This document shows, in pieces, positions 28,365 to 44,747 of a stretch of 64,000 nt of DNA (positions are counted from its first letter, which is position 1; the number at the start of each line of letters is the position of its first letter). The position numbers and the translations under genes were made by a program. The stretch comes from Candidatus Binatia bacterium (GTDB taxonomy: Bacteria; Desulfobacterota; Binatia; UBA9968; CAXXLF01): assembly GCA_963664015.2 (NCBI GenBank), contig CAXXLF010000002.1:512001-576000 (forward strand). Reading direction: 5' to 3'. Below the pieces are notes generated by a model. It was not told the origin of the DNA, did no database searches, and was given only the letters and a program-made list of their open reading frames with translations.

Positions 28365-29276
28365 ATGAAGGTTCTTAGATTCAACGATGACAGAATTGGA
28401 ATATCAAAAGACGGTAATACGCTCGTAGACGTCAGTGACACCATTACCCACAGGGCGGAGAAAGGCCCTAATCGAGCCATGGAAGAATTCATCGAGAGGC
28501 TCGGTTCGACACGCGGCGAAATCGACCAGGCCGTGGCGCAGGGAAAGTCGCTCCCATTGAGCAGCGTCAAGCTTCTAGCGCCAATCCCGCGGCCGAGCAA
28601 GGTGCTCGCCGCCTTTGTCAACTACCTGGACAGGATCGGAGCAGAGCCTGGAATGGTACCCATCGAATTTTTCTACAAGTGCCCCGAGTTGCTGGGACCG
28701 GAAGGGACGATCATCATCCCCGACATCCCCCCTGTCACTGTATTCCAGCCTGAGGCGGAACTTGGCTTTGTTATGGGCAAAGGGGGCAAGGATATCAGCG
28801 AATCCACCGCAATGGACTATGTCCTCGGCTACATGCCATTCATCGACGTGTCGTCCAGGGGTATGGTCCGTCGGACTCAGTTCCTGGGTAAAGGGCTGGA
28901 CACGTGGGGTCCTTGCGGCCCCTGGATTACCACTGCAGACGAAGTCGGCGACCCCTACACCCTCCAGGTCAAATCCTGGGTCAACGGAAAGCCGCGCCAG
29001 GACTACAACACCAGAGAAATGGCTCAAAAAATTCCGGCACTCATAGCCTGGGTGACCCGCTTCGTTACCCTCAATCCTGGGGATGTCATTACCACGGGCA
29101 CCTTTCATGAAGGACTGGGTCCACTCAACGACGGAGATATCGTCGAGATCGAGATAGAAAAGCTTGGACGAGCAAAGTTCTTTACCAAAGGGTATGGCGA
29201 ACGCAAGGAAGGAAACTGGGCACCCCCCATCCCCAAACCGGGTCAAAAGACCGGGCCGGGGATGAGCAAGGTTTGA
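28365..29276 (+). CDS. Fumarylacetoacetate hydrolase family protein
   Basis: LLAPIPRPSKV, PEAELGFVMGK, DVSSR, GKGLDTWGPCGPWI, LNPGDVITTGT; GGGAGG before ATG 28365. Confidence 0.9.
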   Translation: MKVLRFNDDRIGISKDGNTLVDVSDTITHRAEKGPNRAMEEFIERLGSTRGEIDQAVAQGKSLPLSSVKLLAPIPRPSKVLAAFVNYLDRIGAEPGMVPIEFFYKCPELLGPEGTIIIPDIPPVTVFQPEAELGFVMGKGGKDISESTAMDYVLGYMPFIDVSSRGMVRRTQFLGKGLDTWGPCGPWITTADEVGDPYTLQVKSWVNGKPRQDYNTREMAQKIPALIAWVTRFVTLNPGDVITTGTFHEGLGPLNDGDIVEIEIEKLGRAKFFTKGYGERKEGNWAPPIPKPGQKTGPGMSKV

Positions 29277-29345
29277 AAAACGACGATCCTGAGATCGCTT
29301 AAACTTTAAAACAGTCGATACCGATCGAGCGCTTGGACCCGATAC

Positions 29346-30437
29346 TCAAATGTCCAAGACCTTTCCCATCTGAACCGGGGTCCCGCGCTTGGCACACTCG
29401 TCGAGAAAGAGTTGCTTGACCTCCGCCATGGTCTCGGCGGGAATATCCTCGTAGTTCATCTGGTTACCGCCTCTTTTGGTGCTTCGCATGGTGTAAAAAG
29501 TACTTCGGTCCACCTTGTTTCGCTTGCTACTGAGCTTCAACGCCAGGTGCTCCGCCGGATCACTACTGATCACGCAGTGTTGGTGCCACCACCAGTTAGG
29601 CGGCACGATCATAGTTCCCGGCCCCCAGTATTCCTTGGTCTTGTTCTTCTCCGCCCCGTCGGGCCACATTAAGGAATAGCCCTCACCTTTAAGCCAGATC
29701 ACATGGGCCCCGGGCCCGTGGCGGTGTATCTTGCTGAAGGTCCCCCCGGGGAGCTCGACGAGATGGGCGCCGAGAACGCCGTTGGCCATCTCGAAGGAAT
29801 ATCCCCTCGAATTTACGCCCCGATTGGATTCTCGCAATTCAACGTTATAAACATCAGCGAAAAAATTACTGAAGCTTATCTCAGTTGGGATATCCCAGAG
29901 ACCAAACTTTTCGTTCTTTACCTTACCGGAAAAATAATTCTCTTCGCTATCGTACCGTTCGGGAAAGGGCGCATCGTTGTTGAAGATGAAATCGTCGTTT
30001 CGAATCAGATTCATCATGATCGGCGCCGTGGTCACCGCCAGGTACCGGGCCGTCTCCGTCCCCGAGCCATTGAAATGCTGATAGTGGCAGTTAAGCGGGA
30101 TGGCGAACAGGCTTCCCGCTTGCCACTCGAACGAGTTCTTTTTCTTCGGGTTCGTCCACACGCTGGTGCTCCCGCGACCGCTCAGCACAAAGATCATCTC
30201 CTCGTACATATGCCGTTGTGGCTTCAGCTCGCCACCCACCGGGATCTCGCAGATGTACGACGCATTCATCTCGCCGGTGCCGTCCAGTTGTATCTGCACC
30301 GCCTTACCGCCGGTGCGGTCCCAGGGCCTGAGGGACTGGGTATAGACATTGTCGATCTTGGCACCCCGAATCAGGTCCAGCCCTTCCCGCTCCACCCACT
30401 CGTCAAAATACAGGCAGTTCCACTTCATCTCAGCCAT
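29346..30437 (-). CDS. Bicupin, gentisate 1,2-dioxygenase-like, paralog A1
   Basis: Two cupin domains: QRHMYEE...HYQHFN and KIHRHGPGAH...WWHQH. Confidence 0.85.
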   Translation of the reverse strand: MAEMKWNCLYFDEWVEREGLDLIRGAKIDNVYTQSLRPWDRTGGKAVQIQLDGTGEMNASYICEIPVGGELKPQRHMYEEMIFVLSGRGSTSVWTNPKKKNSFEWQAGSLFAIPLNCHYQHFNGSGTETARYLAVTTAPIMMNLIRNDDFIFNNDAPFPERYDSEENYFSGKVKNEKFGLWDIPTEISFSNFFADVYNVELRESNRGVNSRGYSFEMANGVLGAHLVELPGGTFSKIHRHGPGAHVIWLKGEGYSLMWPDGAEKNKTKEYWGPGTMIVPPNWWWHQHCVISSDPAEHLALKLSSKRNKVDRSTFYTMRSTKRGGNQMNYEDIPAETMAEVKQLFLDECAKRGTPVQMGKVLDI

Positions 30438-30488
30438 TTAATTTCCTCCTATATCGATGGATTCATGATTGCCTATAACTACCAAACC

Positions 30489-30518
30489 TTGACAATCGAG
30501 GCAACGAATCAATAGTAT
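30489..30518 (+). promoter_or_regulatory. Putative sigma70 promoter of the Mo-hydroxylase gene
   Basis: TTGACA-N18-TAGTAT, about 210 nt before ATG 30728. Confidence 0.45.
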
Positions 30519-30727
30519 CCCTCCTGTGATTAACCACAAGGGCGGAAAGTCGTAGTACCTGCCAGGAAACGCACAGGGTAAAGGGATCTGAGGGGAAATG
30601 ACCTATCAATCGTATAAGACACAGGTTTCCTGCATATTCAGCTTATGATGACCGGGGACACCTAGCGCCTCCAGACCCTAAGCAACTGCACCTGGGCACG
30701 GGACAAATTCTATTCTAAGGAGGGCCA

Positions 30728-33060
30728 ATGAAGGAGACTTGGGCGACTGTCGGTCAAAGAACCGTCCCCGTGTACGCAAGGGAAAAGGTTATGGGAACGG
30801 CCAAGTTCGCGCCCGATATCAGCCTGCCCAATCTCTTGTGGATGAAAATCCTGAGGAGTCCCCATCCCCACGCCCGGATCCTCGAACTGGATACCTCCGA
30901 GGCCGAGCGTCTTGCTGGAGTAAACGCCGTTCTCACATACCGGGACGTCCCGCGGGTCCTATTCGGGCCGTTCGAGAACGAGCTCTATCCACTGGACCAG
31001 GAGGTTCGCTTTATCGGCGATGCCGTAGCAGCAATAGCGGCGGAAGATTGGAACATCGCAGAGGAGGCAACACGGGCAATCCAAGTAAAGTACGAAATTT
31101 TACCGGCAGTCTTCGACCCGGAGACTGCAGCGCAACCGGGTGCGCCCATCGCAGTTTTGGACCTTCCGGACCCCGATAGCACAATTCCTTGGTGGCAAGA
31201 CCACGCAAATCCCACCTTTCGGGACAATACGACCAATGTCTACAGCCGAGCCCCTGGTGAACCGACCTTATTTAACCGGAGGGGCGACGTAGAAAAGGAT
31301 TTTCAGGAAAGCGACTATCTGGTTGAGAGGGTTTTCCACCAGCCCCATGTGAGCGGGGTCGCCCACGAGCCACGAGCCTGTGTGGCAGTTTGGGAGAATG
31401 GGCAATGCACCCTCTGGTGTTCAGTACAGGAACCCTACAAGCTGGCCAACTCGGTCGCCCGCGTTCTGGATATTCCCGAAAAATCGGTCAGGGTCATTTC
31501 AACCATGATTGGGGGTGGCTTCGGCGTCAAAGTTACGGGAAGATTTGCTATCCTGTGCGCCCTCATGGCCCGGAAAACCGGGAGACCGGTCAAGGTCTGG
31601 CACACTAGAGAAGAGGAGAGTCTGGACTCCCACAACCGGCCCGCCCTGGTTCATTACGTAAAGGCAGGTGCTAAACGTGATGGATCTATCGTTTCCTTCA
31701 AGATTAAGACCTATTTGAATAACGGCTATTGGCTGGGCAAGAGCACAACCAGGCTTGCTCACGGAATGGTCAATCACATCATGGACCTCTACCATCCATG
31801 CCCCAATGTCCTGTGGGAAGTATTTGTCACCAGAACGAATCTGCCCTCCGCCGGTCCTTATCGGGGACGTTCCGATGCGGAGAGTCACTTCGCCATCGAT
31901 TCGGTGGTGGATGAGCTAGCTCACAAGGCTCAGATGGATCCCCTCGAGTTTCGCCTGAAGAACAGGATCCATACCGGCAACGACCTCTGCTCATCTCCGG
32001 GAAGGGTAGTCTCAACCGTGGGGGTCGAGGAGGCAGTACGCCAAGGGGCTGAGACCATAGGATGGCACCGTCGCAAGGCTCTCCCTGGATCGGATGCTGG
32101 GAACAGAAAACGAGGGATGGGAATGGCGATGGTCATCCACAGTGCTGGTAGCCAACCCTTTCGGCCCGCCGCGGCCCGACTCGAGATCGATGACCAGGGC
32201 CGGATCGCCCTGTTTTCGGGTACTACCGATCAGGGCTCGGAGCAACAAACCACACTCCGGCAAATGGTTGCGGAAGTTTTATCTATACCCGCACCCAACA
32301 TCGGCGGGACCAATGCCGACACCTCTACCTGTCCCCGTGATACGGGTCCTATTTCCAGCCGAACGGTTTATGCCACAGGGAGTGCAGCAGTCAGGGCGGC
32401 TTAGGAAATGAAAAACAAACTCCTCCTGCAAGCGTCCAAGGTCCTGGAGGTCTCGGTTGAAGACCTGGAACTCGGAAACCATCGGGTCTGGGTGACTGGC
32501 ACCCCAACCAAAGGAGTTTCATGGGCAGATCTTGTAAAGTCTACTGGGGACCTCATCGTTGCATCAGGCGAGTTTAACGCCAATGAAAAAAGCTCCGTTG
32601 CCTTCGGATTTGCCGCAACATTCGCTGAGGTTGAAGTCGATTTGGAATCAGGGGAGGTCAAAGTCTTACGGCTGATTTCGTCCCACGATGTCGGACGAGC
32701 CATCAACCCAACAATCGTGGAAGGCCAGATCATAGGCGGCGCAGCTCAGGGTCTCGGCTATGCCCTGACTGAGGGGTTCTGCTTCCCCCCAAAACGGGGA
32801 CCGCCCTCAACCAGTGGTTCCTGGACTTGAAGACGCCATCCATCCTGGATACCCCAAAGATCGAACCCATTATGGTTGAATTGGGTGAACCCACTCATCC
32901 CTTCGGGGCCAAAGGCTGCTCGGAAATCTCCACCGTCGGAGTCCCTCCCGCCATTGCCAATGCAATCTATAACGCCACGGGTTTACGTCTGGAAGAGCTT
33001 CCCTTAACTCCTGATCGGGTGCTTTCCGCCTGGCATGCCGCTCATGTATATGGGAATTGA
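30728..33060 (+). pseudogene. Xanthine dehydrogenase-family Mo-binding subunit, disrupted
   Basis: [39 protein letters not shown]. In-frame TAG at 32402-32404 and a frameshift at the C6 run 32785-32790. Confidence 0.88.
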
Positions 33061-33102
33061 AAAACTTCGTAGAAATCTGTGCGATCCATAGCTAAGCGCC
33101 GG

Positions 33103-34194
33103 TTACATGTTGACCACGGCACCCATATTAACCGGTGTGCCACGCTTCGCGCATTCCTCCATAAAGATCCGCTTGAGCTCAGCCATGGTATCGTCGGGAA
33201 CATCTTCGTAGTCCATCTGGTTACCGCCCTTTCGGGTGGTTCTCAAGGTGAAAAAGGTGCTCCGGTCGACTTTATTGGTCCGGCTACTGAGCTTCAGTGC
33301 CAGATGCTCCGCGGGGTCCTTGCCGATGACGCAGTGCTGGTGCCACCACCAGTTAGGTGGAACGATCATGGTACCGGGCCCCCAGTATTCCATGGTCTTG
33401 TTCTTTTCAGACCCATCGGGCCACATCAAGGTATAGCCGTCGCCCTTTAACCAGAGCACGTGAGCCCCGGGTCCGTGACGGTGCAGCTTGCTGAAGGTAC
33501 CGCCCGGTATCTCCAGGATGTGAGCACCTTGAACACCGTTGGCCATCTCGAAGGAATACCCTCTGGTGTCCACTCCGCGATTGGACTCTTCCAGTTCCAG
33601 ACTATTGATGTCGGCGAACAGGTTGCTGAAACTGATATCCATAGGGATATCCCAAAGGTCGAACTTCTCCTTCTTGATATTTCCGGAGAAGTAATTCTCC
33701 TCACCGTCGTAGCGCTCTGGAAAGACCATATCATTGTTGAAGATGAAATCATCGTTTCGCATCAGGTTCATCATGATCGGCGCCGTGTTCACCGCAAGAT
33801 ACCGGGCCGTCTCAGTCCCCGATCCGTTGAAATGCTGGTAGTGGCAGTTGAGCGGTATCGCAAACAGACTCCCCGCCTGCCATTCGAACGAGTTTTTTTT
33901 CTTCGGGTTCGTCCACACGCTAGTGCTCCCTCGCCCACTCAACACATAGATCATCTCCTCGTACATGTGCCGTTGGGGTTTTAGCTCTCCCCCCACCGGA
34001 ATCTCAGAAATGCTGGCCGCGTTCATCTCACCAGTACCGTCCAGCTGAATCTGCACCGCCTTGCCGCCGGTGCGGTCCCAGGGCTTGAGGGGGTGAGTAT
34101 AGACATTGTCAATCTTGGCGCCCCGAATCAGGTCCAGCCCTTCCCGCTCCACCCATTCGTCGAAGTAAAGACAGTTCCACTTCATCTCAGCCAT
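33103..34194 (-). CDS. Bicupin paralog A2
   Basis: Same length as A1 (363 aa), about 84% identical by manual count; KLHRHGPGAH, WWHQH. Confidence 0.85.
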   Translation of the reverse strand: MAEMKWNCLYFDEWVEREGLDLIRGAKIDNVYTHPLKPWDRTGGKAVQIQLDGTGEMNAASISEIPVGGELKPQRHMYEEMIYVLSGRGSTSVWTNPKKKNSFEWQAGSLFAIPLNCHYQHFNGSGTETARYLAVNTAPIMMNLMRNDDFIFNNDMVFPERYDGEENYFSGNIKKEKFDLWDIPMDISFSNLFADINSLELEESNRGVDTRGYSFEMANGVQGAHILEIPGGTFSKLHRHGPGAHVLWLKGDGYTLMWPDGSEKNKTMEYWGPGTMIVPPNWWWHQHCVIGKDPAEHLALKLSSRTNKVDRSTFFTLRTTRKGGNQMDYEDVPDDTMAELKRIFMEECAKRGTPVNMGAVVNM

Positions 34195-34254
34195 CGAATT
34201 CCTCCTTAACCATACTTTCCTGAATTTTCTGCAATAAGATTTTATCCGGGCCTC

Positions 34255-35340
34255 TCAAATGTCAATGACGGCATCCATATTCACCGGAGTGCCCCGTTGG
34301 GCGCACTCTTGAACAAAGATATTTTTCAACTCGGCAATCAACTCGGGAGGTGTATCCTCATAGTTCATCTGGTTGCCGCCGCGCTTGGTGCTCTTCAAGG
34401 TGTTCATACTGTTTTTGTTGACCTTGTTGGTCTTGCTGCTGAGCTTTAATGCCAGGTGCCGGGCGGGCTCGTTGCTGACGATGCAGTGCTGATGCCACCA
34501 CCAGTCGGGCGGAACTACCATCATACCCCGCTTCCAGTTCTCCTTGAGCTTCTCGCCACCGTCGGGCCACATCATCGTATAGCCCTCGCCCATGAGCCAG
34601 ATCACGTGGGCGCCGGGCCCGTGGCGATGCACCTTACTAAAGGTTCCGCCGGGGATCTCAAGCACATGGGCCCCCTGAACTCCATTGGCCAGCTCGAAGT
34701 TGTAACCCCGAGTATTGACCCCACGACTGGACTCCTCCAGCGGAACGTCGTAAACGTTGGCAAAAAAATTACTGAAGTTGACGCTCAGGGGAATATCCCA
34801 CAGGCCGAAGATTTCCGTCTTGATCTTTCCCGAGTAGTACTGATCCTGGCCCTGGTAGCGTTCCGGGAACACGGCGTCGTTATTGAATATGAAATCGTCG
34901 TTTCGAACCAGGTTCATCATAATCGGCGCCGTGGTCACCGCCACGTAGCGCGCCGGCTCGGTCCCGGAACCGTTAAAGTGCTGATAGCGCGCATTGAGCG
35001 GAACTGCGAAGAGGCTCCCGGCCTGCCATTCGAAACTGTTCTTGCGCTTCTCGTCATACCAGACCGTGGTGCTGCCCCGCCCGCTCAAGACAAACACCAA
35101 CTCCTCGTACATGTGTTTCTGTGGTGACAGTTGTTTTTTCGGCGCGATCTCACAGATATACGCGGCGTTCAGCTCACCGGTGCCCTGCAGCTGAATCTGC
35201 ACGGCCTGCCCGCCGGTCCGTGCCCACGGCTTGAGGGGTTGGGTAAAGACGTCATCGATCTTGTGGCCGCGGATGAGGTCCAGTCCCTCTCTCTCAACCC
35301 ATTCGTCGTAGTAAAGACAGTTCCATTTCATCTCGGCCAT
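34255..35340 (-). CDS. Bicupin paralog A3
   Basis: Starts MAEMKWNCLY like A1/A2; QKHMYEE, KVHRHGPGAH, WWHQH. Confidence 0.85.
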   Translation of the reverse strand: MAEMKWNCLYYDEWVEREGLDLIRGHKIDDVFTQPLKPWARTGGQAVQIQLQGTGELNAAYICEIAPKKQLSPQKHMYEELVFVLSGRGSTTVWYDEKRKNSFEWQAGSLFAVPLNARYQHFNGSGTEPARYVAVTTAPIMMNLVRNDDFIFNNDAVFPERYQGQDQYYSGKIKTEIFGLWDIPLSVNFSNFFANVYDVPLEESSRGVNTRGYNFELANGVQGAHVLEIPGGTFSKVHRHGPGAHVIWLMGEGYTMMWPDGGEKLKENWKRGMMVVPPDWWWHQHCIVSNEPARHLALKLSSKTNKVNKNSMNTLKSTKRGGNQMNYEDTPPELIAELKNIFVQECAQRGTPVNMDAVIDI

Positions 35341-35422
35341 TCAGGATCCTCCGTGCGACGGTTACGACCACCACCCGGCAACACTTGGTAGCCAGGTAGT
35401 GGTCGTATTGTTTTGCAGGGAA

Positions 35423-36553
35423 TTAGGCTGATTTCTTGAACTCAGGCATGTCGGAAGCGATGCCCTTCGCGGCCAATTTGGCCTCAAAGCGGCTACGCAC
35501 CTGCGGATCTTCATCCTCGTACTCGAGCAAGGTGCCGCCCTTCTTGACGGACGTCAATGTTCCGTCATCGAAACGTTTGCCCGCCTGGGCAAAGCCCATG
35601 GGAAAGACACGCCCGCCGTAACGGAGGGCCAGGTGCCGTGCGGGTCCCGCACCCGAGTTGAAATGCTGATGGAACCAGTTGGCCGGCGGACAGTAAACGC
35701 TTCCCGCCTTCCACTGCACCTCGATCACCTGGTCTTCGTGCCCATTGCTATAGGGATGCAACCCCAGCTCATTGGGCCAAAGGAGAACGTATCCCTCTGA
35801 CTGCAAGCCCAGCAGGATCGCCCCTGATCCGTGATAGTGGGCCTTGTGGTAGCGCCCCATGGGCCAATTGGAGATATGTCCGATGAGCGAGTTGCCACCG
35901 ATCTGGAACTGGGTAATCTTCACGTCCGCCCCTTTTAGCTCCTCGGACTCCAGTTTCGCCGTGCCCACATCAGGAATGAAGTTGGTCTCCCAGACCTTGG
36001 TGAGTCCCGTCTCGAATATTTTATTGGTGACATTGAAGTAGCCGTCCTGTCCCGAGAAGCGGTCGGCAAAGACATAAGGGGTGTTGAAGACGAAATCGGG
36101 ATTACGATAAAGGTCGATGACCAACGGCGCGTTGGTAACCGCCAGGAATTTGACCGGATCCCGGCCGCCGTTTACCAGCCGATGATTGCTGTTTAGAGGA
36201 TTGGCAAAGACGCTCAAGGGGCCCCACTCGAACAAGATTTTCTTTCCACCCTCCTGCCAGACCTCCGTTGCCCCGTGTCCATCGAGGATACAGATCACTT
36301 CTTCGTACATGTGTTTTTCTGGTTCCAGGGCTCCGCCCGGAGGAATTTCGGCCACGTACATACCGGTAATGCCTTCCTGGCCGTAGAGGTGGATGAAGGA
36401 ACCCTTTCCTCCCATACGCTTCCAGGGTTCGAGCTTGATGTCCCGAACATCCGAAAGCGCGTAACCTTCCACCATGGGAATCCCCTGGCTTTTGACCCAT
36501 TTGAAGTAGGCCGTCTTCTGCATTGACTCCATCAGTTTATCGAATACACCCAT
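35423..36553 (-). CDS. Bicupin paralog B (divergent subtype)
   Basis: EKHMYEE...SNHRLVN and KAHYHGSGA...WFHQHFN. Confidence 0.85.
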   Translation of the reverse strand: MGVFDKLMESMQKTAYFKWVKSQGIPMVEGYALSDVRDIKLEPWKRMGGKGSFIHLYGQEGITGMYVAEIPPGGALEPEKHMYEEVICILDGHGATEVWQEGGKKILFEWGPLSVFANPLNSNHRLVNGGRDPVKFLAVTNAPLVIDLYRNPDFVFNTPYVFADRFSGQDGYFNVTNKIFETGLTKVWETNFIPDVGTAKLESEELKGADVKITQFQIGGNSLIGHISNWPMGRYHKAHYHGSGAILLGLQSEGYVLLWPNELGLHPYSNGHEDQVIEVQWKAGSVYCPPANWFHQHFNSGAGPARHLALRYGGRVFPMGFAQAGKRFDDGTLTSVKKGGTLLEYEDEDPQVRSRFEAKLAAKGIASDMPEFKKSA

Positions 36554-36640
36554 ATTGTTGTTAACCTCCCTAACTTAGATTTTAATTAGACAACCATCCG
36601 TATCGAAATCTTCTTTTCCAGCACACGTTCTCAGCTCGTA

Positions 36641-37804
36641 TTACCTACCGCGCAGCTTGCCCCCTCCTTTGAGCCACAAAGAGTTCCAGTAATCAAACAA
36701 GGGCGGCATGACCTCGTCGATCCGAGTAGGATCTCTGAAGGCTAGCTTCTTTCCCAGGATTTTATCGGCGAACGGGAGGAACTCCTTGCGGTTGAGATCC
36801 TTATGGATCGGCCCCCAGAGCCCGCCACCGAAACGTGAGATCTGCCCTTCCTTACTGAGTAGCCAATTCAACATAACCTTGGCGGCGTTGGGATTGGGAG
36901 AATTATTCAGCAAGACCGCTTCTTCCGTAGAGGCAGGTACCGGCTCGGGGCAGTGGAAGCTCACCGGAGCACCCTGCTGTACCATCTGAAAGACCCGTCG
37001 ATAGTTGGACGGAGCCACTCCATGAAACTCACCGGCCGCAGCTAACTGGGTCAGTGCATTCATTCCCTCCTTGCGCAGCTGCGGCTTGACCTCGGAAAAC
37101 AGCTTGTTCATAAAATTCTTCGCCCACTTCTCCCCGTTCACCATCCACAGGTTTCCAATAAAAAGGTTGGGCCGGTTCCCCAGGGCGAAATTGCCGTTGT
37201 GCCAGATGGAGTTGGTCAGAAGGTCTTTCCAACCTTTTGGGAGATCCTTATCCTTGACCATTCGCGTATTGTACGAGATGCACCAGTAGAGCTTGGAGAT
37301 GCCGGTCCAGGTTCCATTGGTAGCTTTCAATCCATCGGGGACACTTGCCAGGGCTGGAAGGGGACGGAGATCGACCAGTCCTTTGGCCTTCTCAAATTCG
37401 TTTACGAACGCTCCAACCGAAAAAACCGCATCCGTAAGGACCCTGCCGCTTTTGTACGCCATCAGGGTCTTCACCGTACGTCCCTCCCGGTTGGCCCCCG
37501 TATAATCGAATTTGATAAATGGGTATCGCTCCTTGAAAGGGGCGAAGATATCGTTGATTTCCCTGCTCCGGGCAGGCGTACCACGAACCTTGACCGCACC
37601 TTCCTTTTTTGCGCCCTGGATCCATTCTTTGGGAACGTTCAGCTCTTTGTCGATACCGCTAAGTATGGAGGGATCGACCTTGAGTTTTTTCAATATCTTT
37701 TGCGTCGCTTCGGGTAACGATTCAGCCGATACGAAATACCATGGGACCAGCGTTAGGGCCACGACAACGCTGATAAATATTGACCCTCGAACTTTCTTTA
37801 TCAT
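36641..37804 (-). CDS. ABC substrate-binding protein (paralog of 43590..44747)
   Basis: Signal peptide from MIKKVRG; LDKELxVPKxWIxGAKKEG, LGNRPNLF, KPQLRKEGMNAL, SKEGQ. Confidence 0.88.
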   Translation of the reverse strand: MIKKVRGSIFISVVVALTLVPWYFVSAESLPEATQKILKKLKVDPSILSGIDKELNVPKEWIQGAKKEGAVKVRGTPARSREINDIFAPFKERYPFIKFDYTGANREGRTVKTLMAYKSGRVLTDAVFSVGAFVNEFEKAKGLVDLRPLPALASVPDGLKATNGTWTGISKLYWCISYNTRMVKDKDLPKGWKDLLTNSIWHNGNFALGNRPNLFIGNLWMVNGEKWAKNFMNKLFSEVKPQLRKEGMNALTQLAAAGEFHGVAPSNYRRVFQMVQQGAPVSFHCPEPVPASTEEAVLLNNSPNPNAAKVMLNWLLSKEGQISRFGGGLWGPIHKDLNRKEFLPFADKILGKKLAFRDPTRIDEVMPPLFDYWNSLWLKGGGKLRGR

Positions 37805-38080
37805 TCCTCTATTCCTTCTATTAAAGCTGTGTGTGAAGCGCAGTTCATTACGCAACGTTAGATATTAGTTCAAAATTGCCGGGTGCGCCTTTCGTCTGAC
37901 CTCTAATGCGTTAATATACTGTCCTTTTATTGTCAAGCTGTTAACAGAACCGATTGAATCCGGTTGAAATGCGATGGCTTCACGAGGCGTTGACAGTCAC
38001 GTCTGCATCGGATAATGAAGCAGAGAGTTGCTACAATATTTAGTGAATAATTTCAGCCAATATACGAAAAAGGCCCTTCC

Positions 38081-39283
38081 ATGCTGAACAGAGAACAGAA
38101 CGATCTGCTGTGTCGAACCGGTGCTGGAACACCCGGTGGTGAGATGCTCCGACGCTACTGGCAGCCAGTAGGGCTTTCCAGTGAATTAACCGCCGGCGGA
38201 CAACCCCGCCAGGTCCGGATCATGGCGGAAGATCTGGTCCTCTTCCGGGACGACCAGGGAAGACCGGGTCTGTTGGGTCTCCACTGCTCCCATCGACTCA
38301 CATCCCTCGTTTACGGCCGCGTAGAGGACGGTGGCATTCGCTGTCCCTTCCACGGTTGGCTGTACGACATCGAAGGCAAATGCCTGGCGCAGCCGGCTGA
38401 GCCCGAGCCTATCAGTAAAACATTTCGCCACCTGGCCTACCCGTGCCAGGAGTTGGGGAGCTTGATCTTTGCCTACATGGGACCGTTGGACAAGATGCCG
38501 TTGCTGCCCAGGTACGAGGTCCTGGTGCGCCAGGACGGAAACCGTAAGGTCGACTGTTACACGATCAACAGTAACTATCTTCAAAACGTGGAAGGAGCCC
38601 TGGATACCTCCCATGCCTCTTTCCTTCACATCGACAACTGGTCCAAGATGAAACACAAGCTCGCGGCCATGCCCAAACGCGAGATCAAATTCAAAGAGAC
38701 CGACTATGGCATCTGGCAAACAGCGATGTCCCATATTCAGGCGGCGACCAAAGGCGCCTTGATCCCCGTCTATGCCCACTTCTTCATGCCCGCCGGATTC
38801 ATGAGAATTCAGGAAACACGCCATGAGGCAGGTCTGATCCAGAAATACCAGTCCTGGTACGTCCCCATCGACGATACCCACACCGTCAGGTACCAGGTTA
38901 GCTTTTCACCGCCGATGAAAAACGGCAAACTCTTTCCATGGCCACCCCAGGAAGAATTCGCCCAACCGGGTCCCGAGAATGATTACTTCCGTAACTACGA
39001 TGAGGTGGACACGATCTCGGGAATACCTATGAAAACTACCGCATCCGCCGTCAAAGGGTTTCTGGTTCAAGACAGCATGGTCAATGAAAGCCAGGGCCCA
39101 ATCGTGGATCGCAGCCGGGAGCACCTGGGGGCGTTGGACACGGTGCTGACGGCAATGAGGGTTATGCTCCTGGTAGCCGTAGAGGATGTCCGGCAGGGCC
39201 GCGACCCCAAGCACATCATCCGGGACCCGCACAAAAATGAGATAGTGGGTATTCGTGGGGAAGATGAACAGGAACGGGTCTAA
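38081..39283 (+). CDS. Rieske oxygenase alpha subunit (phthalate 4,5-dioxygenase/LigXa-like)
   Basis: GTPGGEMLRRYWQP, CSHR...CPFHGW, EGALDTSHASFLH, QDSMVNESQGPI. Confidence 0.92.
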   Translation: MLNREQNDLLCRTGAGTPGGEMLRRYWQPVGLSSELTAGGQPRQVRIMAEDLVLFRDDQGRPGLLGLHCSHRLTSLVYGRVEDGGIRCPFHGWLYDIEGKCLAQPAEPEPISKTFRHLAYPCQELGSLIFAYMGPLDKMPLLPRYEVLVRQDGNRKVDCYTINSNYLQNVEGALDTSHASFLHIDNWSKMKHKLAAMPKREIKFKETDYGIWQTAMSHIQAATKGALIPVYAHFFMPAGFMRIQETRHEAGLIQKYQSWYVPIDDTHTVRYQVSFSPPMKNGKLFPWPPQEEFAQPGPENDYFRNYDEVDTISGIPMKTTASAVKGFLVQDSMVNESQGPIVDRSREHLGALDTVLTAMRVMLLVAVEDVRQGRDPKHIIRDPHKNEIVGIRGEDEQERV

Positions 39284-39322
39284 TCCTAGCGTTGGCCAAA
39301 GATCCGATTCAGGGGAAAATCG

Positions 39323-39706
39323 ATGACTCAGACCATCGAACCACTATCCCTGCAGACCGGAGGCGTATTATTCAAAATACAATTTCGTCATAGTCGGGGC
39401 GACGAAGGCCTCACCTTTGACGTGTTCCCGGCAGATGGAAAAAACAAGGACAGGCTCCTGCGTTTCGACTGCTTTAGAGACAAACCACATTTTCATCTTG
39501 GCCGAGTAAAGGTCATGGATATAGATAAATCCAGGAACCCGGATCCCCCCCGGTGGGCGCTCAGTCAATTCAAGACCCGGCTTTCATCTTTGATCGAAGA
39601 GGCTGGATATAAAGACGTCGCTCAGCAGGTCAACCAAGCGGCCGTAGCCAAGTCCCTTTCGAGAATTGAGAAAGAGATTTTCCGCTTAGAGGACGAATCA
39701 AAATGA
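39323..39706 (+). CDS. Conserved-looking hypothetical protein (LRFDCF...PHFH)
   Basis: 127 aa, RBS AGGGG, ATGA overlap with the next Rieske gene. Confidence 0.7.
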   Translation: MTQTIEPLSLQTGGVLFKIQFRHSRGDEGLTFDVFPADGKNKDRLLRFDCFRDKPHFHLGRVKVMDIDKSRNPDPPRWALSQFKTRLSSLIEEAGYKDVAQQVNQAAVAKSLSRIEKEIFRLEDESK

Positions 39707-40920
39707 TCAAGCCATCCGATCTTTCATGGGACGATGTGGTTCGAGTGGGATCGGGGACTCTGGGCGGAAACTACCTGCGCTCTTTCTGGTGGCCGGTGGC
39801 GCCGTCCGATGAGGTGAAGGACATTCCCGTTCCGGTCAGGCTTCTTGCCGAGGAGCTCGTCTTGTTTCGCGACCTCTCGGGTCACCTGGTTATGCTGGAC
39901 GCCCATTGTCCCCATCGCCGTGCCTCCCTGGAATACGGAAGGATCCAAGAAAACGGGATTCGCTGCGCCTATCATGGATGGCATATCGACCGAGAAGGGA
40001 AAATCATAGACCGGCCCGCAGAACCCATCAAGGCGACCGACCAGATTCGACAAACCTGCTATCCGGTCAAGGAACTGGGCGGTTTTGTCTTTGGCTACCT
40101 GGGACCTGATAAAAAGAGCCCGCCTCCCCTTCCCAGGTATGACATTCTAGTTGGAGATGGATATCGAGTTGCCGAGCGAGGAGACAATGAGCTTGGTAAG
40201 GCATACAATTGCAATTGGCTTCAGGGCGTAGAAAACACAACCGATACCTCTCATCTGGCCTATTTGCATGGGATATACGATCGGTGTCCAATATTCAAAT
40301 CGGTTGAAGGCGATTACGGTGTCAAAATCTATATCCTGGACCCGGGTAAGAAACCCAATACTTTAAAACTACGCAAGAGGACTACCGTGCTTCCGACCAT
40401 GAGTCGAAAGTCGAGACAGGAAACCGGGGTAAAGGCCCCAGGGAGGGCTAAAGGAAATATCCAGCAGGCCATATGGCTTATCCCCATTAACGACACGGAG
40501 TGCTCGGAGATGAGGCTGACGGTCTATCCTGAAGAACCACCGGATGAAAGGTATTATGGAGCTGCTATGGACAAGGCCAAAGGCAGGGAACTAAAACCGT
40601 ACGATCGGCGTAAATTTGGCGAGATCGAAGGCAACGTTCCGTTGGAAGACAAGGCAATGGTCGAGACTCAAGGGCCCATCGTGGACCGAACACTGGAGCA
40701 TACCGGATACGGTGACCGGGCCATCCTGATGCTGCGCAAGATGATCCGCGAGGGGATCGCGGATGTAGCCAACGGCCAAAAACCCCGCGGCGTCCTGGAT
40801 CGGGAACCGGAGATGATCGACCTTGACATAGGTTTCGACGAATTCCAGATTGATGAATGCCCCGCCGAGTTGAAGGACCTGGCGGATCAGCTGCAACAGG
40901 AACTTAAACAGGCGGGGTAG
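39703..40920 (+). CDS. Rieske oxygenase alpha subunit (phthalate 4,5-dioxygenase/LigXa-like)
   Basis: CPHRRA...CAYHGW, CNWLQGVENTTDTSHLAYLH, EDKAMVETQGPI. Confidence 0.92.
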   Translation: MIKPSDLSWDDVVRVGSGTLGGNYLRSFWWPVAPSDEVKDIPVPVRLLAEELVLFRDLSGHLVMLDAHCPHRRASLEYGRIQENGIRCAYHGWHIDREGKIIDRPAEPIKATDQIRQTCYPVKELGGFVFGYLGPDKKSPPPLPRYDILVGDGYRVAERGDNELGKAYNCNWLQGVENTTDTSHLAYLHGIYDRCPIFKSVEGDYGVKIYILDPGKKPNTLKLRKRTTVLPTMSRKSRQETGVKAPGRAKGNIQQAIWLIPINDTECSEMRLTVYPEEPPDERYYGAAMDKAKGRELKPYDRRKFGEIEGNVPLEDKAMVETQGPIVDRTLEHTGYGDRAILMLRKMIREGIADVANGQKPRGVLDREPEMIDLDIGFDEFQIDECPAELKDLADQLQQELKQAG

Positions 40921-41007
40921 TTCTCCCTTCCCGGTTAAGCGCGAGAACCCCACGAAAAGGGCTTATTAGATCGACCAACCGCCGGCGTTGCTCCCCAGCC
41001 CGTGGCC

Positions 41008-42054
41008 TTACGCGTTCTTCAGAAGAGGAAAAATCCTCTTTGCATTTTCCGTAAAGATCTTTTTCTTATCTTCGCCACTGAGAAATCCTATGCTGTCGAT
41101 GACCGGGATCAGGTCGTCCGATGGTTTGTTGGTTTCCGGATTCAAGATCGCCGTGCCCGAGCCAGGGGCCTCGGTTCCAAACAGCATCCGACTGACGCCC
41201 CGCTGCTTGATCGCCGTAGCCAGAAAGTCTTTGTCGTAGGCACAGGTGTCGGAAAAGAGATTGTTACTGACATCCATTCTACGCCCTGTTTCTCGCCTCT
41301 ATACCCCCGCCCCCACCGAGCCGCCGGATTCTTCACCGGACGGCTTGGCTCCTCGCGACACCAGTCGATTCAAGGCCCCACCGCAATGACAGATGATCAC
41401 CTTGAGCTCGGGAAAGCGCTGGAATACGTCGCTGTGCTCCAGCAACAGGGTGGCCAGAGTCTCTTCCGTCATATTGTTATACTAGTAGTTATGGGGAATA
41501 ATCTCGATGCGGGGATCCCGGCTGATGGCCGGGTGGACGATGAGAGGGGCTTTCAGCTCCTGTGCCTTTTCGTAAAGCGGGTACCAGTACTCCATGTCCA
41601 TGCCCGGTGTCTGTCGGTCAGCTCCGGGATCCGGATTGACCAGGGCGCCCACAAACCCCAATTCTTTGATGCATCGAACCAATTCGGGGACGCAGTTGCT
41701 CGTGTTCAACTTGGAGTTCTGCGGCAGCTGGGCAATCCCAACGAAACGGTCTGGATGCATTTGACACTGTTGATGAATGATATCGTTGGTGACCCGGGTC
41801 CATTTGTTTACTATAAACGGGGCCTCCCAGTGCATCATAGCCACCGGCCTTGGGGAAATCATTTGTAGATCAATATTCCTCTCGTCCATTATCCGGAAGT
41901 GCCGCGCCAATGCGCCATCCATGAGTTCTTTAGAGATTTCAAGGTCGGTTCCACCGGGGCTTCTAAGCGCAATGAGATTGTAGGCAAAGGCCCTGAAATG
42001 GGGCGGGGTCGACATATGACCGTGTACATCAATTACCTTTTGTCCGTTGTACAT
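41008..42054 (-). pseudogene. Amidohydrolase-2 family, LigY/LigJ-like meta-cleavage product hydrolase, with two in-frame TAG codons
   Basis: IDVHGH, ISPRPVAMMH, NPDP, YWYPLYEK, HCGGA, FGTEAPGSG. One frame throughout, interrupted by TAG at 41482-41484 and 41299-41301. Confidence 0.85.
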
Positions 42055-42336
42055 AGTTCCCCCAGCAGATTAGATTCGGGTATACTCTTCGGGTAACCCG
42101 CTACCCCCATTCGTTTCCCTCAAATAACCATCAATGCAAGCCCAGGCTTCGATGCCGGGGTCTCCCATTGATAAAAACAGCGGGGAGAAAAGAGCATGGA
42201 TCAGGGTTAGGACAGAATAAGTGGGATAGGGCTCATGTCCGGGGTTGGTCCGGAAACCGAACCGGCCCCGTCAATGAACTCACTGAATTCAGCTCGAGCG
42301 GCGGAGAGATTCCGTCGCAGTATAATATGCGGATGG

Positions 42337-43437
42337 CTAACCCTTGCGGATTCCCTTTAGGACCTCGTCCATGTGACTGGGAGCACCGATCTTGGCCAGC
42401 TCGCCTTCGAATATCCCACGAATTTTGGGATCCTCGTCCTGATACTCGATCTGGCCTCCGCCGTCCTTAACGTCTTCCGAGGTACCGAATTGTTTTTTCA
42501 GCCCCGGGTGCTTCCGGCTGGTAAAGGGCTTTAACGCCAGATACCGGGCGGACTCGGCACCTTTATTGAAATGCTGGTGGAACCACAATTCGGGAGGAAC
42601 AAACAAGCTCATCTCATGCCAGTCGTATCTCGTAAAGTCTTTTCCCTCGGGCCACATCATAGAATAGCCCTCGCCCTTGAGCACGATCACGTGGGCGCCG
42701 GCGCCATGGCGGTGGGCCTTCTTATAGGTGCCCACGGGAAATTCCGAGATGTGAGCGGACATCACGTTGTTGGCAATCTCGAGCATGATCCCGGTCCCAC
42801 CGGCACCACGGACGCTCTGGTCCTTCAATTGAAACGCCCTGACGTCCTGGATGAAGTTGCTTTCCCAGAACCTCTCGGCAAGGAACTTCCCCTTACCGCT
42901 GAAGAAATCGTCCTCCCCGCTGTAACGGTCTTTAAAAACGTGATCGCAATTGAAGATGAAATCCTGGCTATGGAATAGATTCATGACGGTAGGGGCATCG
43001 GTCATACCCAGCAGCCGTACCGGTTGATCCCCCTGGCCGTTGAAGTGCTGATACCAGGCGTTCAAGGGAGGCGAAAAGACGCTTCCCTCCTGCCATTCAA
43101 ACGTCTGCTTCTTCCCACCTTCGTTCCATACGCTGGTAGCTCCGCGGCCGCTAACCACGAAGAGGAGTTCTTCAAACATGTGTTTTTGAGGCTTGATGGA
43201 CTGCCCCGCCGGGATCTCCAGGATGTAGCTATCGTTGACCCCTTCGCTACCATCCAGGTTCAGATAACTCCCCATGGCCCCCATGCGCTTCCAGGGCGCG
43301 ACTTCCACCTTTCGCACATCCTGGATGAAGAACCCCCCGACGACTGGTATGTTTTCTTCCACCAGAAACTCGTCATAAGCGCTAATGCACCCCAGTTCGT
43401 TTCCCTTAAGTTTCACCGCTGTTGCCGGTTTTGCCAT
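42337..43437 (-). CDS. Bicupin paralog C
   Basis: QKHMFEE...WYQHFN and KAHRHGAGAH...WFHQHFN. Confidence 0.85.
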   Translation of the reverse strand: MAKPATAVKLKGNELGCISAYDEFLVEENIPVVGGFFIQDVRKVEVAPWKRMGAMGSYLNLDGSEGVNDSYILEIPAGQSIKPQKHMFEELLFVVSGRGATSVWNEGGKKQTFEWQEGSVFSPPLNAWYQHFNGQGDQPVRLLGMTDAPTVMNLFHSQDFIFNCDHVFKDRYSGEDDFFSGKGKFLAERFWESNFIQDVRAFQLKDQSVRGAGGTGIMLEIANNVMSAHISEFPVGTYKKAHRHGAGAHVIVLKGEGYSMMWPEGKDFTRYDWHEMSLFVPPELWFHQHFNKGAESARYLALKPFTSRKHPGLKKQFGTSEDVKDGGGQIEYQDEDPKIRGIFEGELAKIGAPSHMDEVLKGIRKG

Positions 43438-43589
43438 TCCAACCCTCCTAATTTTTAAATATGAGATACTACTGTTGCATTTTTTCTGACGATAGACAAA
43501 GGAAGGCCACAGCTTCGGAGCAGTGAATCCCCTGCCGGGCTCACCGGCAACTGGACGAGATCGAGTCTTCGGATAACCGATCTCGAACG

Positions 43590-44747
43590 CTACCGCTTCT
43601 TACCCCCGCCTTTGAGCCAGAGGTCGTTCCAGAAATTCATCATCTCGGGCAGAAAGGGCTGCATCTGGTTGGCATTGATGAATACCTGCCTCCGGCCCAG
43701 GATCTGATCGGCAAAGGGCAGGAATTCGGCCCTTATAAGGTCCTTGTGGCTCGGGGTCCAATAGGTCGCAGCGTACTGCGCAAGCTGGCCTTCCTTACTA
43801 AGCAACCAGTTCAGAAAGAGTTTGGCCGCATTCACGTTGGGAGCTCCCTTGAGAATGATCGCGGATCCGCCTACCGCCGCAGGAACCGGCTCGGGGCATG
43901 AGAACCCAAGCGGTGCCCCTTGCTTCATCAAACGGTAAGGGCTCTTATAATGGGATGGGATGACACCGTAAAACTCGCCGGCTGCGGCGAGCTGAGGGAG
44001 GGCATTCATGCCCTCTTTACGGAGCTGCGGCTTGAGCTCATTAAACAGTCTTGTCATGTACTCCTTGGTCCACTTTTCCCCCTTGTCCAGCCACAGGTTC
44101 GCTAAAAAAAGGTTAGGACGATTTCCAAGGGCAAGGTTACCGTTCCTCCAGATGGGGTTGGTCAGAAAGTCTTCCCACTTCTTGGGAAGGTCTTTCTGCT
44201 TCACCAACCTCGTGTTGTAGGCCAGGCACCAATAGATGCTGAAAGTACCTACCCATCCACCTTCGGGATCCTTAAGCCCCTCAGCCACGTTCTTGAACCC
44301 GGGGATCTCCTCCAGGGGCTCGACCCCACCAGCCTTTACGAACTCAAAGACAAAGGAGCCTACGTTGGCCACGATATCGGACAAGTACCTTCCGCCCGTA
44401 TAGGCCTCCAGGGTCTTAAAGGTCCGGCTAGCCCGGTTGGAACCAAAGTAGTCGACTTTAATCGACGGATACCGCTCCCGAAAGGGCGCAAGGAAGAGGT
44501 TTCTTTCCTTGGATTGGAGCGGCGTGCTCCGTATCTTGACCAAGCCTTCTTTTTTAGCCCCATCGATCCAAGCCTTCGGGACGCTCAGCTCCTTGTCCAA
44601 GCCAGACAAAATCGAAGCGTCCAGTTTCAGGCTCTTGAGTGCCTTCTGAGTCGATTTCGGAAAACCCGCTGAACGAACGTTGTGGGGAATGGTGAAACCC
44701 CAAGCCAGAGTCAAGATCATAATCCATGAAACGGATAGTCTTTTCAT
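43590..44747 (-). CDS. ABC substrate-binding protein (paralog of 36641..37804)
   Basis: Signal peptide; SILSGLDKELSVPKAWIDGAKKEG, LGNRPNLF, KPQLRKEGMNAL, CPEPVPA. Confidence 0.88.
   Translation of the reverse strand: MKRLSVSWIMILTLAWGFTIPHNVRSAGFPKSTQKALKSLKLDASILSGLDKELSVPKAWIDGAKKEGLVKIRSTPLQSKERNLFLAPFRERYPSIKVDYFGSNRASRTFKTLEAYTGGRYLSDIVANVGSFVFEFVKAGGVEPLEEIPGFKNVAEGLKDPEGGWVGTFSIYWCLAYNTRLVKQKDLPKKWEDFLTNPIWRNGNLALGNRPNLFLANLWLDKGEKWTKEYMTRLFNELKPQLRKEGMNALPQLAAAGEFYGVIPSHYKSPYRLMKQGAPLGFSCPEPVPAAVGGSAIILKGAPNVNAAKLFLNWLLSKEGQLAQYAATYWTPSHKDLIRAEFLPFADQILGRRQVFINANQMQPFLPEMMNFWNDLWLKGGGKKR

Follow-up and report, generated by a model that had tools for sequence, protein, structure and literature searches.

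The window, a stretch of 64,000 nucleotides from a Candidatus Binatia genome, raises the question of what five paralogous bicupin genes of three subtypes are doing within 14 kb of one another: whether they constitute a special local system for aromatic ring cleavage, and whether their products act alone or together. A sequence-only reading of this DNA had proposed either a heteromeric cupin dioxygenase made of bicupin B plus A or C, or a substrate-diversified cleavage library fed by the neighboring Rieske, UbiD, and Mo enzymes. The genes concerned are listed here by position in the window.

Five bicupin genes and their neighborhood

19896-21077: a third, more distant Rieske gene
28272-29276, plus strand: fumarylacetoacetate-hydrolase (FAH) family protein, convergent with A1
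29346-30437, minus strand: bicupin A1, 363 aa; N-terminal site Q-H-E-Y, C-terminal site H-H-(Ala)-H-H
30728-32830, plus strand: Mo-hydroxylase large subunit, between A1 and A2; in-frame TAG at 32402-32404
33103-34194, minus strand: bicupin A2, 363 aa; final gene in the SBP-B-A3-A2 run
34255-35340, minus strand: bicupin A3, 361 aa
35423-36553, minus strand: bicupin B, 376 aa; N-terminal site E-H-E-H, C-terminal site H-H-(Ala)-H-H
36641-37855, minus strand: solute-binding protein (SBP; SBP_bac_6/8/1), same strand as B and 87 nt upstream of it
38081-39283, plus strand: LigXa-type Rieske oxygenase, first gene of the divergent unit 38081-40920
39323-39706, plus strand: DUF7700, middle of the same divergent unit
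39703-40920, plus strand: second LigXa-type Rieske oxygenase, end of the same divergent unit
42337-43437, minus strand: bicupin C, 366 aa
43590-44747, minus strand: solute-binding protein, same strand as C and 152 nt upstream of it
45741-47999: second Mo hydroxylase
51219-52673: UbiD

All five bicupins are intact ORFs of 361-376 aa on the minus strand, and the three subtypes named in the sequence-only reading are borne out both by identity to A1 (84% for A2, 73% for A3, 36% for B, and 45% for C) and by a tree in which B falls within a deep 11-member clade, with the copy G000:C2:1090962 as its sister, and C forms a basal lineage within the family. The B-A3-A2 tandem, previously described as having gaps of less than 90 nt, indeed has gaps of 82 nt (B-A3) and 60 nt (A3-A2), and the SBP gene at 36641-37855 is likely to be the first gene of an SBP-B-A3-A2 operon. 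RNA-library contigs from 4 runs map to B; none over the array spans two genes, and uncovered stretches are uninformative. A scan of positions 29000-45000 found 8 promoter sites (9.8 in shuffled sequence) and 16 terminator sites (18.5 in shuffled sequence), and since neither count exceeds that in shuffled sequence, these numbers are operon evidence in neither direction. DNA repeats at A2 are restricted to the coding sequence. The Mo-hydroxylase gene between A1 and A2, its frame interrupted by the TAG, is a probable pseudogene, and the FAH family to which the neighbor of A1 belongs is an enzyme type that processes ring-cleavage products.

A remote relationship to gentisate and salicylate dioxygenases

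The C-terminal domain of all five proteins carries H238-x-H240, Ala244 at the position of the motif-1 Glu, and W-H285-Q-H287, confirming the earlier claim of a C-terminal 3-His site devoid of that Glu; the 3-His cupin signature (His-x-His ... His, no carboxylate ligand) is thus present on sequence, and according to the part of PMC10306065 that was available, 3-His is the most typical coordination motif among cupin dioxygenases. The site is nearly invariant beyond the window: among the 34 intact copies in the genome, H238, H285, and H287 are found in all 34, H240 in 32, and Glu244 in none, and 88 of 89 members from other genomes have the same HH-A-HH pattern. The N domain of the family is strongly conserved too (H76, E79, E104, W105, N123), and may carry a second functional site that a stand-alone dioxygenase reading ignores. 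Here the candidate ligands read E-x-H-x3-E...H in B, and Q-x-H-x3-E...Y in A and C. At the motif-2 position (A1 residue 119), His occurs in B alone of the five and Tyr in A1-A3 and C, so that the supposed uniqueness of B holds among the five genes of the window but dissolves genome-wide, where 17 of 34 copies have His and 13 have Tyr, and both types are found as singletons.

The structure model of A1 (pLDDT 95.8, pTM 0.93) consists of two strand-rich barrels, the N domain corresponding to the Pfam Cupin_2 match, and the bicupin architecture is evident from Z scores of 19-21 to many solved bicupins over ~250 residues. The best matches after re-ranking with VIA are salicylate 1,2-dioxygenase (SDO; 2phd, Z 21.0, rmsd 3.1 A, 253 residues) and gentisate 1,2-dioxygenase (GDO; 3bu7, Z 20.4), which rank first and show the lowest rmsd; next, at Z 19-20, come Mn oxalate decarboxylase, MncA, and seed globulins, within 1 Z unit of SDO and GDO and therefore tied with them. 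Because scores are tied across bicupins, the fold alone says only "bicupin". An initial Foldseek ranking, with oxalate decarboxylase, MncA, and vicilins first at TM ~0.5, was uninformative and was replaced by the VIA re-ranking, which is still tied.

Aligned by hhalign to the GDO-like group encoded in the same genome, the family scores a probability of 98.2% (E 3.2e-14, 215 columns), and the alignment is colinear, N domain on N domain and C domain on C domain, with the family C-site (H-R/Y-H ... W-H-x-H, Ala at the Glu position) falling on the HRH...WHEH of the GDO-like proteins. Cross-wise NCBIfam matches had suggested that domain order might be swapped relative to GDO, an idea ruled out by this colinearity. 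When the family profile was searched against sequences of solved structures, the sole match below E 1e-3 was GDO 3bu7 (E 1.8e-6, 24.9 bits). The likeness to the 1,2-dioxygenases of gentisate and salicylate proposed earlier is therefore real, but remote: against the NCBIfam GDO model TIGR02272, A1-A3 score 16-17 bits and C 21 bits, with no match for B, compared with a curated whole-protein cut-off of 442.1 bits; the GDO and 5-aminosalicylate dioxygenase models together give 16-40 bits against cut-offs of 442 and 650; and the oxalate decarboxylase model TIGR03404 gives 14 bits, for A2 only, far under its cut-off of 254.2. Ten separate GDO-like genes in the same genome score 206-343 bits with TIGR02272, and the phylogeny, a check suggested with the earlier proposal, places the bicupin family in a single clade of its own with 100% support, outside that GDO-like group. 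On these alignments, we conclude that the family is a remote colinear homolog of the gentisate/salicylate 1,2-dioxygenases.

Comparison with solved bicupins brings out what is distinctive: i) like GDO and SDO (class III cupin ring-cleaving dioxygenases; TIGR02272; 2phd, 3bu7, 2d40), the family proteins are bicupins of ~350-380 aa with a 3-His site, no Glu, and a W-H-x-H motif, but in E. coli GDO and SDO the iron is described as lying in the N-terminal barrel and the C-terminal barrel as vestigial (PMC10306065, seen in part), so that the predicted 3-His site of the family, in the C-terminal barrel, is their mirror image, and the N-terminal 3-His iron site is replaced by Q/E-H-E-Y/H; ii) Silicibacter pomeroyi GDO (3bu7) has two cupin barrels, each holding an iron centre, and its C-terminal HRH...WHEH is the only solved sequence stretch matched by the family profile, whereas the family again has Q/E-H-E-Y/H rather than 3-His at its N-terminal site; and iii) the Mn bicupins OxdC and MncA share the whole fold at Z 19-20, but the family C-site lacks the Glu ligand in 34/34 copies, and the TIGR03404 score is likewise low. 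Searches of Pfam, NCBIfam, and PDB sequences returned nothing specific to the family and thus no characterized or solved member, in agreement with the earlier statement, and none of the literature listings and passages covered on SAR202, Binatia, and Binatota aromatic enzymes and on EutA plus cupin describes it.

A genome-wide family with occasional EutA-like partners

The five genes are a local sample of a genome-wide family, not a special local system. A family-profile search of the 3.5-Mb genome gave 68 matches, with 34 ORFs at 251-704 bits corresponding to 34 intact copies plus fragments, and 29 of the intact copies lie outside the window; the array is nonetheless dense, 5 of the 34 copies occupying 14 kb against ~0.14 expected under an even spread. 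The family was present in 41/41 genomes searched in the host's order, comprises 670 representatives at E<=1e-30, and extends to MAGs labelled Chloroflexota, Alphaproteobacteria, and other groups. Singletons prevail (68/78 genome loci and 49/71 metagenome loci). The same genome has ~50 UbiD and ~65 Rieske matches, and also encodes an OprB porin and ExbB/ExbD. A Rieske gene lies within 6 kb of 12/34 copies (5.4 expected, permutation P ~0.004), and a UbiD gene within 6 kb of 9/34 (4.6 expected, P ~0.04), modest enrichments given that tandem copies are non-independent and both gene types abound throughout the genome. LigB, Amidohydro_2, and FAH genes are also found near family copies, and SBP genes adjoin B, C, and several other copies, those beside B and C bearing a weak resemblance to aminoethylphosphonate, polyamine, or iron-type binding proteins. 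Of the two earlier proposals, the substrate-diversified library is the one that fares better, with 34 copies and presence in all 41 genomes, but the library is genome-wide rather than local, and Rieske and UbiD genes are only modestly linked to it. The family has probably multiplied for the breakdown of many different aromatic compounds.

In style the genome resembles those of SAR202 Chloroflexota and of deep and Arctic MAGs (Colatriano 2018, PMC6123686; Grevesse 2022, PMC9789639), where, in the available parts of both reports, one MAG was reported to hold dozens of ring-cleaving dioxygenases, demethylating Rieske oxygenases, and decarboxylases, GDO-annotated genes included. These parts count dioxygenase annotations of known type, and do not single out the bicupin family, its C-terminal site, EutA-like partners, or fusions.

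An unexpected adjacency recurs in subsets of several clades, with the bicupin directly upstream: in the host genome, 4 family copies are each followed directly downstream by a gene for a EutA-like ATPase, and a EutA-like gene is next to a family member at 5 further loci elsewhere. EutA (PF06277) is the reactivating factor of ethanolamine ammonia-lyase; the family-adjacent proteins match it over its full length (E 1e-117 to 1e-124) and keep the ASKHA phosphate motifs. No EutA-like neighbor was found beside any of the five window genes, and no EutB in the host genome (97% complete); because the genome has no EutB, the client of these EutA-like proteins would be something other than ethanolamine ammonia-lyase. 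An apparent fusion, P0280 (900 aa, incomplete in both its bicupin and its EutA-like portion), was set aside as what looks like a gene-calling artefact.

Proposed stand-alone dioxygenases and the alternatives

The explanation we favor, at a probability of about 0.55, is that the family consists of Fe(II)/O2 ring-cleaving enzymes acting alone, diversified in substrate and often paired with a solute-binding-protein gene. Each copy would bind Fe(II) through its C-terminal 3-His site, act with O2 on its own hydroxylated aromatic substrate, by opening the ring or by some other oxygenation, and work as a homo-oligomer by analogy with GDO and SDO; the N-terminal site, catalytic in E. coli GDO and SDO, is remodelled to Gln/Glu-His-Glu-Tyr/His; SBP-B-A3-A2 and SBP-C would be uptake-plus-cleavage modules; and the array would have been built from deep paralogs (B versus A, 36%) plus younger duplications (A1 versus A2, 84%). 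A plain stand-alone dioxygenase leaves the EutA-like partner and the fused double units unexplained.

The five proteins might instead cooperate, B assembling obligatorily with A3, A2, or both into a hetero-oligomer, and C perhaps pairing with another copy; one subunit type would then carry the cleavage site, and the other a further or regulatory metal site (E-H-E-H in B). There is precedent for heteromeric cupin ring cleavage in the two-subunit hydroquinone 1,2-dioxygenases, described in part of PMC10306065 as heterotetramers of two cupin subunits with a working metal site in one; compared by description only, these differ from the family, whose copies each keep a complete site of their own and are mostly singletons. 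B and A come from separate, deeply branching clades, yet lie in one co-directional run; B-A3 adjacency, a co-occurrence that the earlier proposal suggested checking, persists in all close relatives seen, that is, in both closest genomes and in 3/3 metagenome contigs with an A3 ortholog of at least 85% identity; six fused clusters of 706-830 aa join two complete but divergent family units (halves 31-56% identical), P0274 and P0275 having E-H-E-H followed by Q-H-E-Y in the order of B and then A3; and overlapping pairs of family genes recur in soil metagenome loci. However, i) the full C-terminal 3-His site in 5/5 proteins means that none looks like a dead partner; ii) host-genome singletons include both His-type copies (of which there are 17) and Tyr-type copies (13), and the two types are mixed in just 3/10 multi-copy genome loci; iii) B's sister paralog has no A-clade neighbor in the host genome or at the 14 sister-family loci examined, and A-clade relatives of 52-76% identity have a B-type neighbor in 0/7 loci with at least 2.8 kb on both sides; conserved B-A3 synteny was observed only among close kin of at least 80% identity; and iv) none of the fusion halves is orthologous to B or A, and every fusion cluster is represented by a single sequence. 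As most members stand alone, the heteromer is unsupported for most of the family; the part of the earlier proposal resting on a B-specific His falls away, while conserved B-A3 pairing and the six fusions still speak for it, and we regard it as improbable overall.

Nor need the chemistry be ring cleavage. Cupin 3-His sites are used in several chemistries, and the family site could serve an isomerase, a decarboxylase, a lyase, or a thiol or beta-diketone oxygenase acting on non-aromatic or already-cleaved substrates, or mere metal or ligand binding. This would fit the absence of family-specific models, dioxygenase scores far under cut-off, structural scores equal to those of decarboxylases and non-enzymatic bicupins, adjacent SBPs unlike known aromatic-acid binders, and the modest linkage to aromatic-pathway genes. 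Against it, the site signature aligns to that of GDO-like proteins, the only solved-structure sequence match below E 1e-3 is a GDO, SDO and GDO come first in the structural comparison and have the lowest rmsd, and aromatic-funnelling families (LigXa-type Rieske, UbiD, LigB, Amidohydro_2, FAH) dominate the context; we consider a different chemistry unlikely.

A bolder and, in our judgment, doubtful possibility would accommodate the partners and fusions: the family could be a new class of O2-using metalloenzyme for refractory aromatics, prone to inactivation and, in several clades, served by a dedicated EutA-like ASKHA ATPase as reactivase or metallochaperone outside B12 enzymology, with some lineages having fixed paralog pairs, as the fused double units suggest, and B-A3-A2 forming one multi-subunit enzyme.

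Whichever holds, the family makes up ~1% of the genes in an abundant kind of uncultured bacterium of sea and soil; it has no studied member and no dedicated database model, and its public name, "ethanolamine ammonia lyase-activating protein", is misleading. Concrete questions for bench work arise from three of its features: an active site placed as the mirror image of that in GDO and SDO, the double units joined by fusion, and the partners resembling EutA. If its members are ring-cleaving dioxygenases of many specificities, they would be candidates for the enzymes that turn over dissolved organic matter of humic and lignin origin, and a natural enzyme library ready for enzymology.

Five window genes and their predicted metal sites

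All five bicupin ORFs of the window are present as the sequence-only reading described them, on one strand and encoding proteins of 361-376 aa:

29346-30437, minus strand, bicupin A1, 363 aa
33103-34194, minus strand, bicupin A2, 363 aa, 84% identity to A1
34255-35340, minus strand, bicupin A3, 361 aa, 73% identity to A1
35423-36553, minus strand, bicupin B, 376 aa, 36% identity to A1
42337-43437, minus strand, bicupin C, 366 aa, 45% identity to A1

B, A3, and A2 form the tandem run it claimed, with gaps under 90 nt (82 nt for B-A3, 60 nt for A3-A2). When cupin motifs are taken from an alignment that uses the closing Gly of motif 1 as its anchor, the C-terminal barrel of all five reads H238-x-H240-x3-A244-x6-G251, then W-H285-Q-H287, a predicted 3-His site plus a fourth invariant His with Ala at the usual cupin Glu position; the HxH...W-H-Q-H site lacking a motif-1 Glu is thus confirmed. 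In the N-terminal barrel the pattern is residue 74-x-H76-x3-E80-x6-G87, residue 119 taking the place of the motif-2 His, and the four site positions are E-H-E-H in B and Q-H-E-Y in A1-A3 and C. An AlphaFold model of A1 built from 112 aligned sequences has two barrels (pLDDT 95.8, pTM 0.93).

The suggested likeness to the 1,2-dioxygenases of gentisate and of salicylate (GDO and SDO) stands as colinear homology, but not as membership of a named family. The generic Cupin_2 is the sole Pfam model to match the five proteins, in the N domain only; scores are 16-21 bits against the NCBIfam GDO model (TIGR02272, cut-off 442) and 28-40 bits against the 5-aminosalicylate dioxygenase model (cut-off 650), and B matches no NCBIfam model. 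Among solved structures the only sequence match below E 1e-3 is S. pomeroyi GDO (3bu7; E 1.8e-6, via the C-terminal barrel). The same genome carries 10 GDO-like bicupins separate from the family (206-343 bits against TIGR02272), and profile-profile comparison with this group (probability 98.2%, E 3.2e-14, 215 columns) shows, at the level of sequence, that the homology is real and colinear: i) in the N-terminal site, Q74 and H76 of A1 align to the first two GDO-like His, E80 to the Ala, and Y119 to the third His; and ii) the family HRH...WHQH aligns to the GDO-like C-terminal HRH...WHEH. Foldseek by itself places generic bicupins at the top; once the top 1000 chains are re-aligned for structural ranking, SDO 2phd (Z 21.0, rmsd 3.1 A, 253 residues) and GDO 3bu7 (Z 20.4) lead, tied within one Z unit by oxalate decarboxylase, MncA, and seed globulins.

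A maximum-likelihood tree of 34 family copies and 6 GDO-like genes (4 of the 10 left out; quick search, LG+G4) places the family, at the end of a long branch, in a single clade (SH-aLRT support 100%). Within it A1-A3 cluster with a tandem pair on contig C2 (C2:1164312/1165653), B falls in an 11-member clade as sister to the copy at C2:1090962, and C is basal. As described in a structural study (PMC10306065), iron occupies the N-terminal barrel of E. coli GDO and SDO, whose C-terminal barrel is vestigial, and both barrels of S. pomeroyi GDO. Compared with E. coli GDO and SDO, the site placement in our family is a mirror image, the C-terminal site being invariant and the N-terminal one remodelled. 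Motif, homology, and context point to Fe(II)- and O2-dependent ring fission as the predicted chemistry. Our literature search found no paper on the family, in keeping with the sequence-only reading, which knew of no characterised member, and proteins of the family go by public names as different as "cupin domain-containing protein" and "ethanolamine ammonia lyase-activating protein".

Expansion and spread of the family

Searched with a profile built from the five genes, the window's own genome (3.51 Mb in two contigs, C1 and C2; 97% complete) gives 68 matches, and ORF calling there yields 34 intact family members (251-704 bits) and broken copies, as fragments or with in-frame TAG or TGA stops, at four places:

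C2:421016-422192, broken bicupin copy
C2:1113069-1113933, broken bicupin copy
C2:1499533-1500318, broken bicupin copy
C1:65862-67035, broken bicupin copy

These lie beside intact copies, indicating that the family is still being gained and lost. Five in 14 kb is an ordinary pattern for this genome. H238, H285, and H287 are kept in 34/34 copies, H240 in 32, and H76 in 30; position 244 is never Glu (0/34) and is Ala in 25. Residue 119 is His in 17, Tyr in 13, Phe in 2, Cys in 1, and Arg in 1, such that the statement that only B keeps the N-domain His holds within the window but not genome-wide. The paralog load is extreme for 3.5 Mb, with about 50 UbiD matches, 65 Rieske matches, 34 family bicupins, 10 GDO-like bicupins, and 7 full-length EutA-like genes.

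Family members occur in 41/41 genomes searched of the same order, this one included, at 4 to 46 matches each, and 670 proteins match at E<=1e-30 among 1.84 billion 50%-identity representatives. Outside this genome, the closest loci are titled "uncultured Candidatus Binatia bacterium" in their records, and others are titled as Chloroflexota, Deltaproteobacteria, Alphaproteobacteria, Syntrophobacteraceae, Verrucomicrobiia, Burkholderiales, Gemmatimonas, and Modestobacter MAGs. Two metagenome loci (L165 and L166, 5-6083) have five consecutive members on the same strand, of which the first is truncated by the edge of the locus and all are nearest to the C2:1114265 type.

Gene neighbourhood and the heteromer question

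The Rieske, UbiD, and Mo-enzyme neighbours noted from sequence were all found near the five genes. Solute-binding protein (SBP) genes lie on the same strand 87 nt upstream of B and 152 nt upstream of C; two LigXa-type Rieske genes flank a DUF7700 gene whose product may be an accessory subunit; and a second, intact Mo hydroxylase, an SDR, a FAH-family hydrolase, UbiD, and LigB complete the set, none of these neighbours reaching an NCBIfam equivalog cut-off.

26944-28101, minus strand, M24/creatinase-fold protein; best NCBIfam match DMSP lyase DddP, 117 bits, far below the 600-bit cut-off
30728-32830, plus strand, Mo-hydroxylase large subunit between A1 and A2; single in-frame TAG at 32402-32404
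39323-39706, plus strand, DUF7700 gene wedged between the LigXa-type Rieske genes; 4-nt overlap with the start of the second

The interrupted Mo hydroxylase (pieces of 558 and 140 aa, both in one Pfam domain, MoCoBD_2) is probably a recent pseudogene. Among 233 ORFs scanned near the remaining 29 copies, UbiD, LigXa-type Rieske, LigB, Amidohydro_2, SBP, and NMT1-like genes recur. Enrichment within 6 kb is only modest by position permutation, both for Rieske (12/34 copies, 5.4 expected, P about 0.004) and for UbiD (9/34, 4.6 expected, P about 0.04), and these P values are generous because tandem copies are not independent. RNA-library contigs that are 95-99% alike, from four runs on seawater or marine samples in four studies, fall on B in 4/4 runs, on the SBP gene in 2, and on A3 and A2 in 1 each, with DNA carry-over possible; no contig in these libraries bridges two genes.

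Whether the tandem genes encode a heteromer or belong to a substrate-diversified library had been left as alternatives, and we regard a heteromeric B-A3-A2 enzyme as unlikely. B-A3 adjacency is preserved in both closest genomes (C nearby in both, a second B copy in one) and in 3/3 metagenome contigs with A3 orthologs of at least 85% identity, but these are all close kin, and B and A are not seen together in the more distant loci examined: across 14 sister-family loci the best B-like gene is nearer B's sister paralog in 13 and has an A-clade neighbour in none, and in seven metagenome loci with an A-clade gene (52-76% identity, 2.8 kb or more of flank on either side) that gene is alone in six, accompanied by a second A-type in one, and never by a B-type. 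The A clade (the A1-A3 lineage) itself reaches E<=1e-120 in only 3/41 genomes of the order; as its nearest named relatives (56-62% identity) are labelled Chloroflexota, this distribution suggests horizontal transfer between Chloroflexota and the Binatia-order group.

Multi-copy arrays do occur in 22/71 metagenome loci, where runs reach five genes and overlapping pairs recur, yet 68/78 loci in other genomes (a biased sample, fetched by A/C-like motifs) have no second member within about 3 kb, His and Tyr types at residue 119 are mixed in only 3/10 multi-copy loci of other genomes, and both types exist as singletons in the window's own genome. Six protein clusters (P0274-P0279, 706-830 aa, each a single member sequence, with P0274 on three contigs) carry two complete units fused head to tail, the halves 31-56% mutually identical: P0274 and P0275 have E-H-E-H then Q-H-E-Y order (halves 55-56% identical), and P0277-P0279 combine a C-like unit with an ortholog of one of the EutA-linked copies (31-34%). 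Judged from sequence, such fusions mean that a pair of distinct paralogs can be kept together; none of the halves is orthologous to B or A. The best reading is of a large, uncharacterised bicupin family that is related to GDO, carries its 3-His site in the C-terminal barrel, and is substrate-diversified genome-wide and mostly stand-alone; the original observation is confirmed and its interpretation supported in part, the library being the arm we prefer.

EutA-like partners

Four of the seven full-length EutA-like genes in this genome, none of them beside the window genes, come directly downstream of family copies, as do five elsewhere; two further ones adjoin an Amidohydro_2 gene and an MBL-fold gene, both metal enzymes.

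L011:3798-5273, minus strand, EutA-like ASKHA ATPase downstream of a bicupin
L019:11290-12801, minus strand, the same
L020:6568-8139, plus strand, the same
L022:6722-8194, plus strand, the same
L063, L097, L115, L138, L212, the same, outside this genome
L217:3333-4820, minus strand, EutA-like gene not beside a bicupin
L218:3696-5315, minus strand, EutA-like gene not beside a bicupin

A EutA-like gene lies within 2.5 kb of 4/34 copies against 0.33 expected (position permutation, P about 0.0004), and EutB has no match in this 97% complete genome. The same order recurs in 4/79 loci of other genomes (one titled Modestobacter) and 1/78 metagenome loci, where the bicupins are nearest first to C2:1779913 and then to C (40-51% identity), and the link therefore spans several clades. 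ASKHA phosphate motifs are kept in the EutA-like proteins. Modelling of one bicupin and EutA-like pair weakly suggests a complex: median ipSAE is 0.57 (0.62, 0.57, 0.53; best of 3 controls 0.00), in a range (passes at or below 0.60) that held 18 of 157 solved complexes and both mismatches that passed, with at least 93% of contacts shared between runs and partner pLDDT of at least 77. The association is probably behind the odd public name "ethanolamine ammonia lyase-activating protein" and hints that some family members need an ATP-driven helper. The bicupin family itself, its mirror-image site, its fusions, and its EutA-like partners all pose testable questions.
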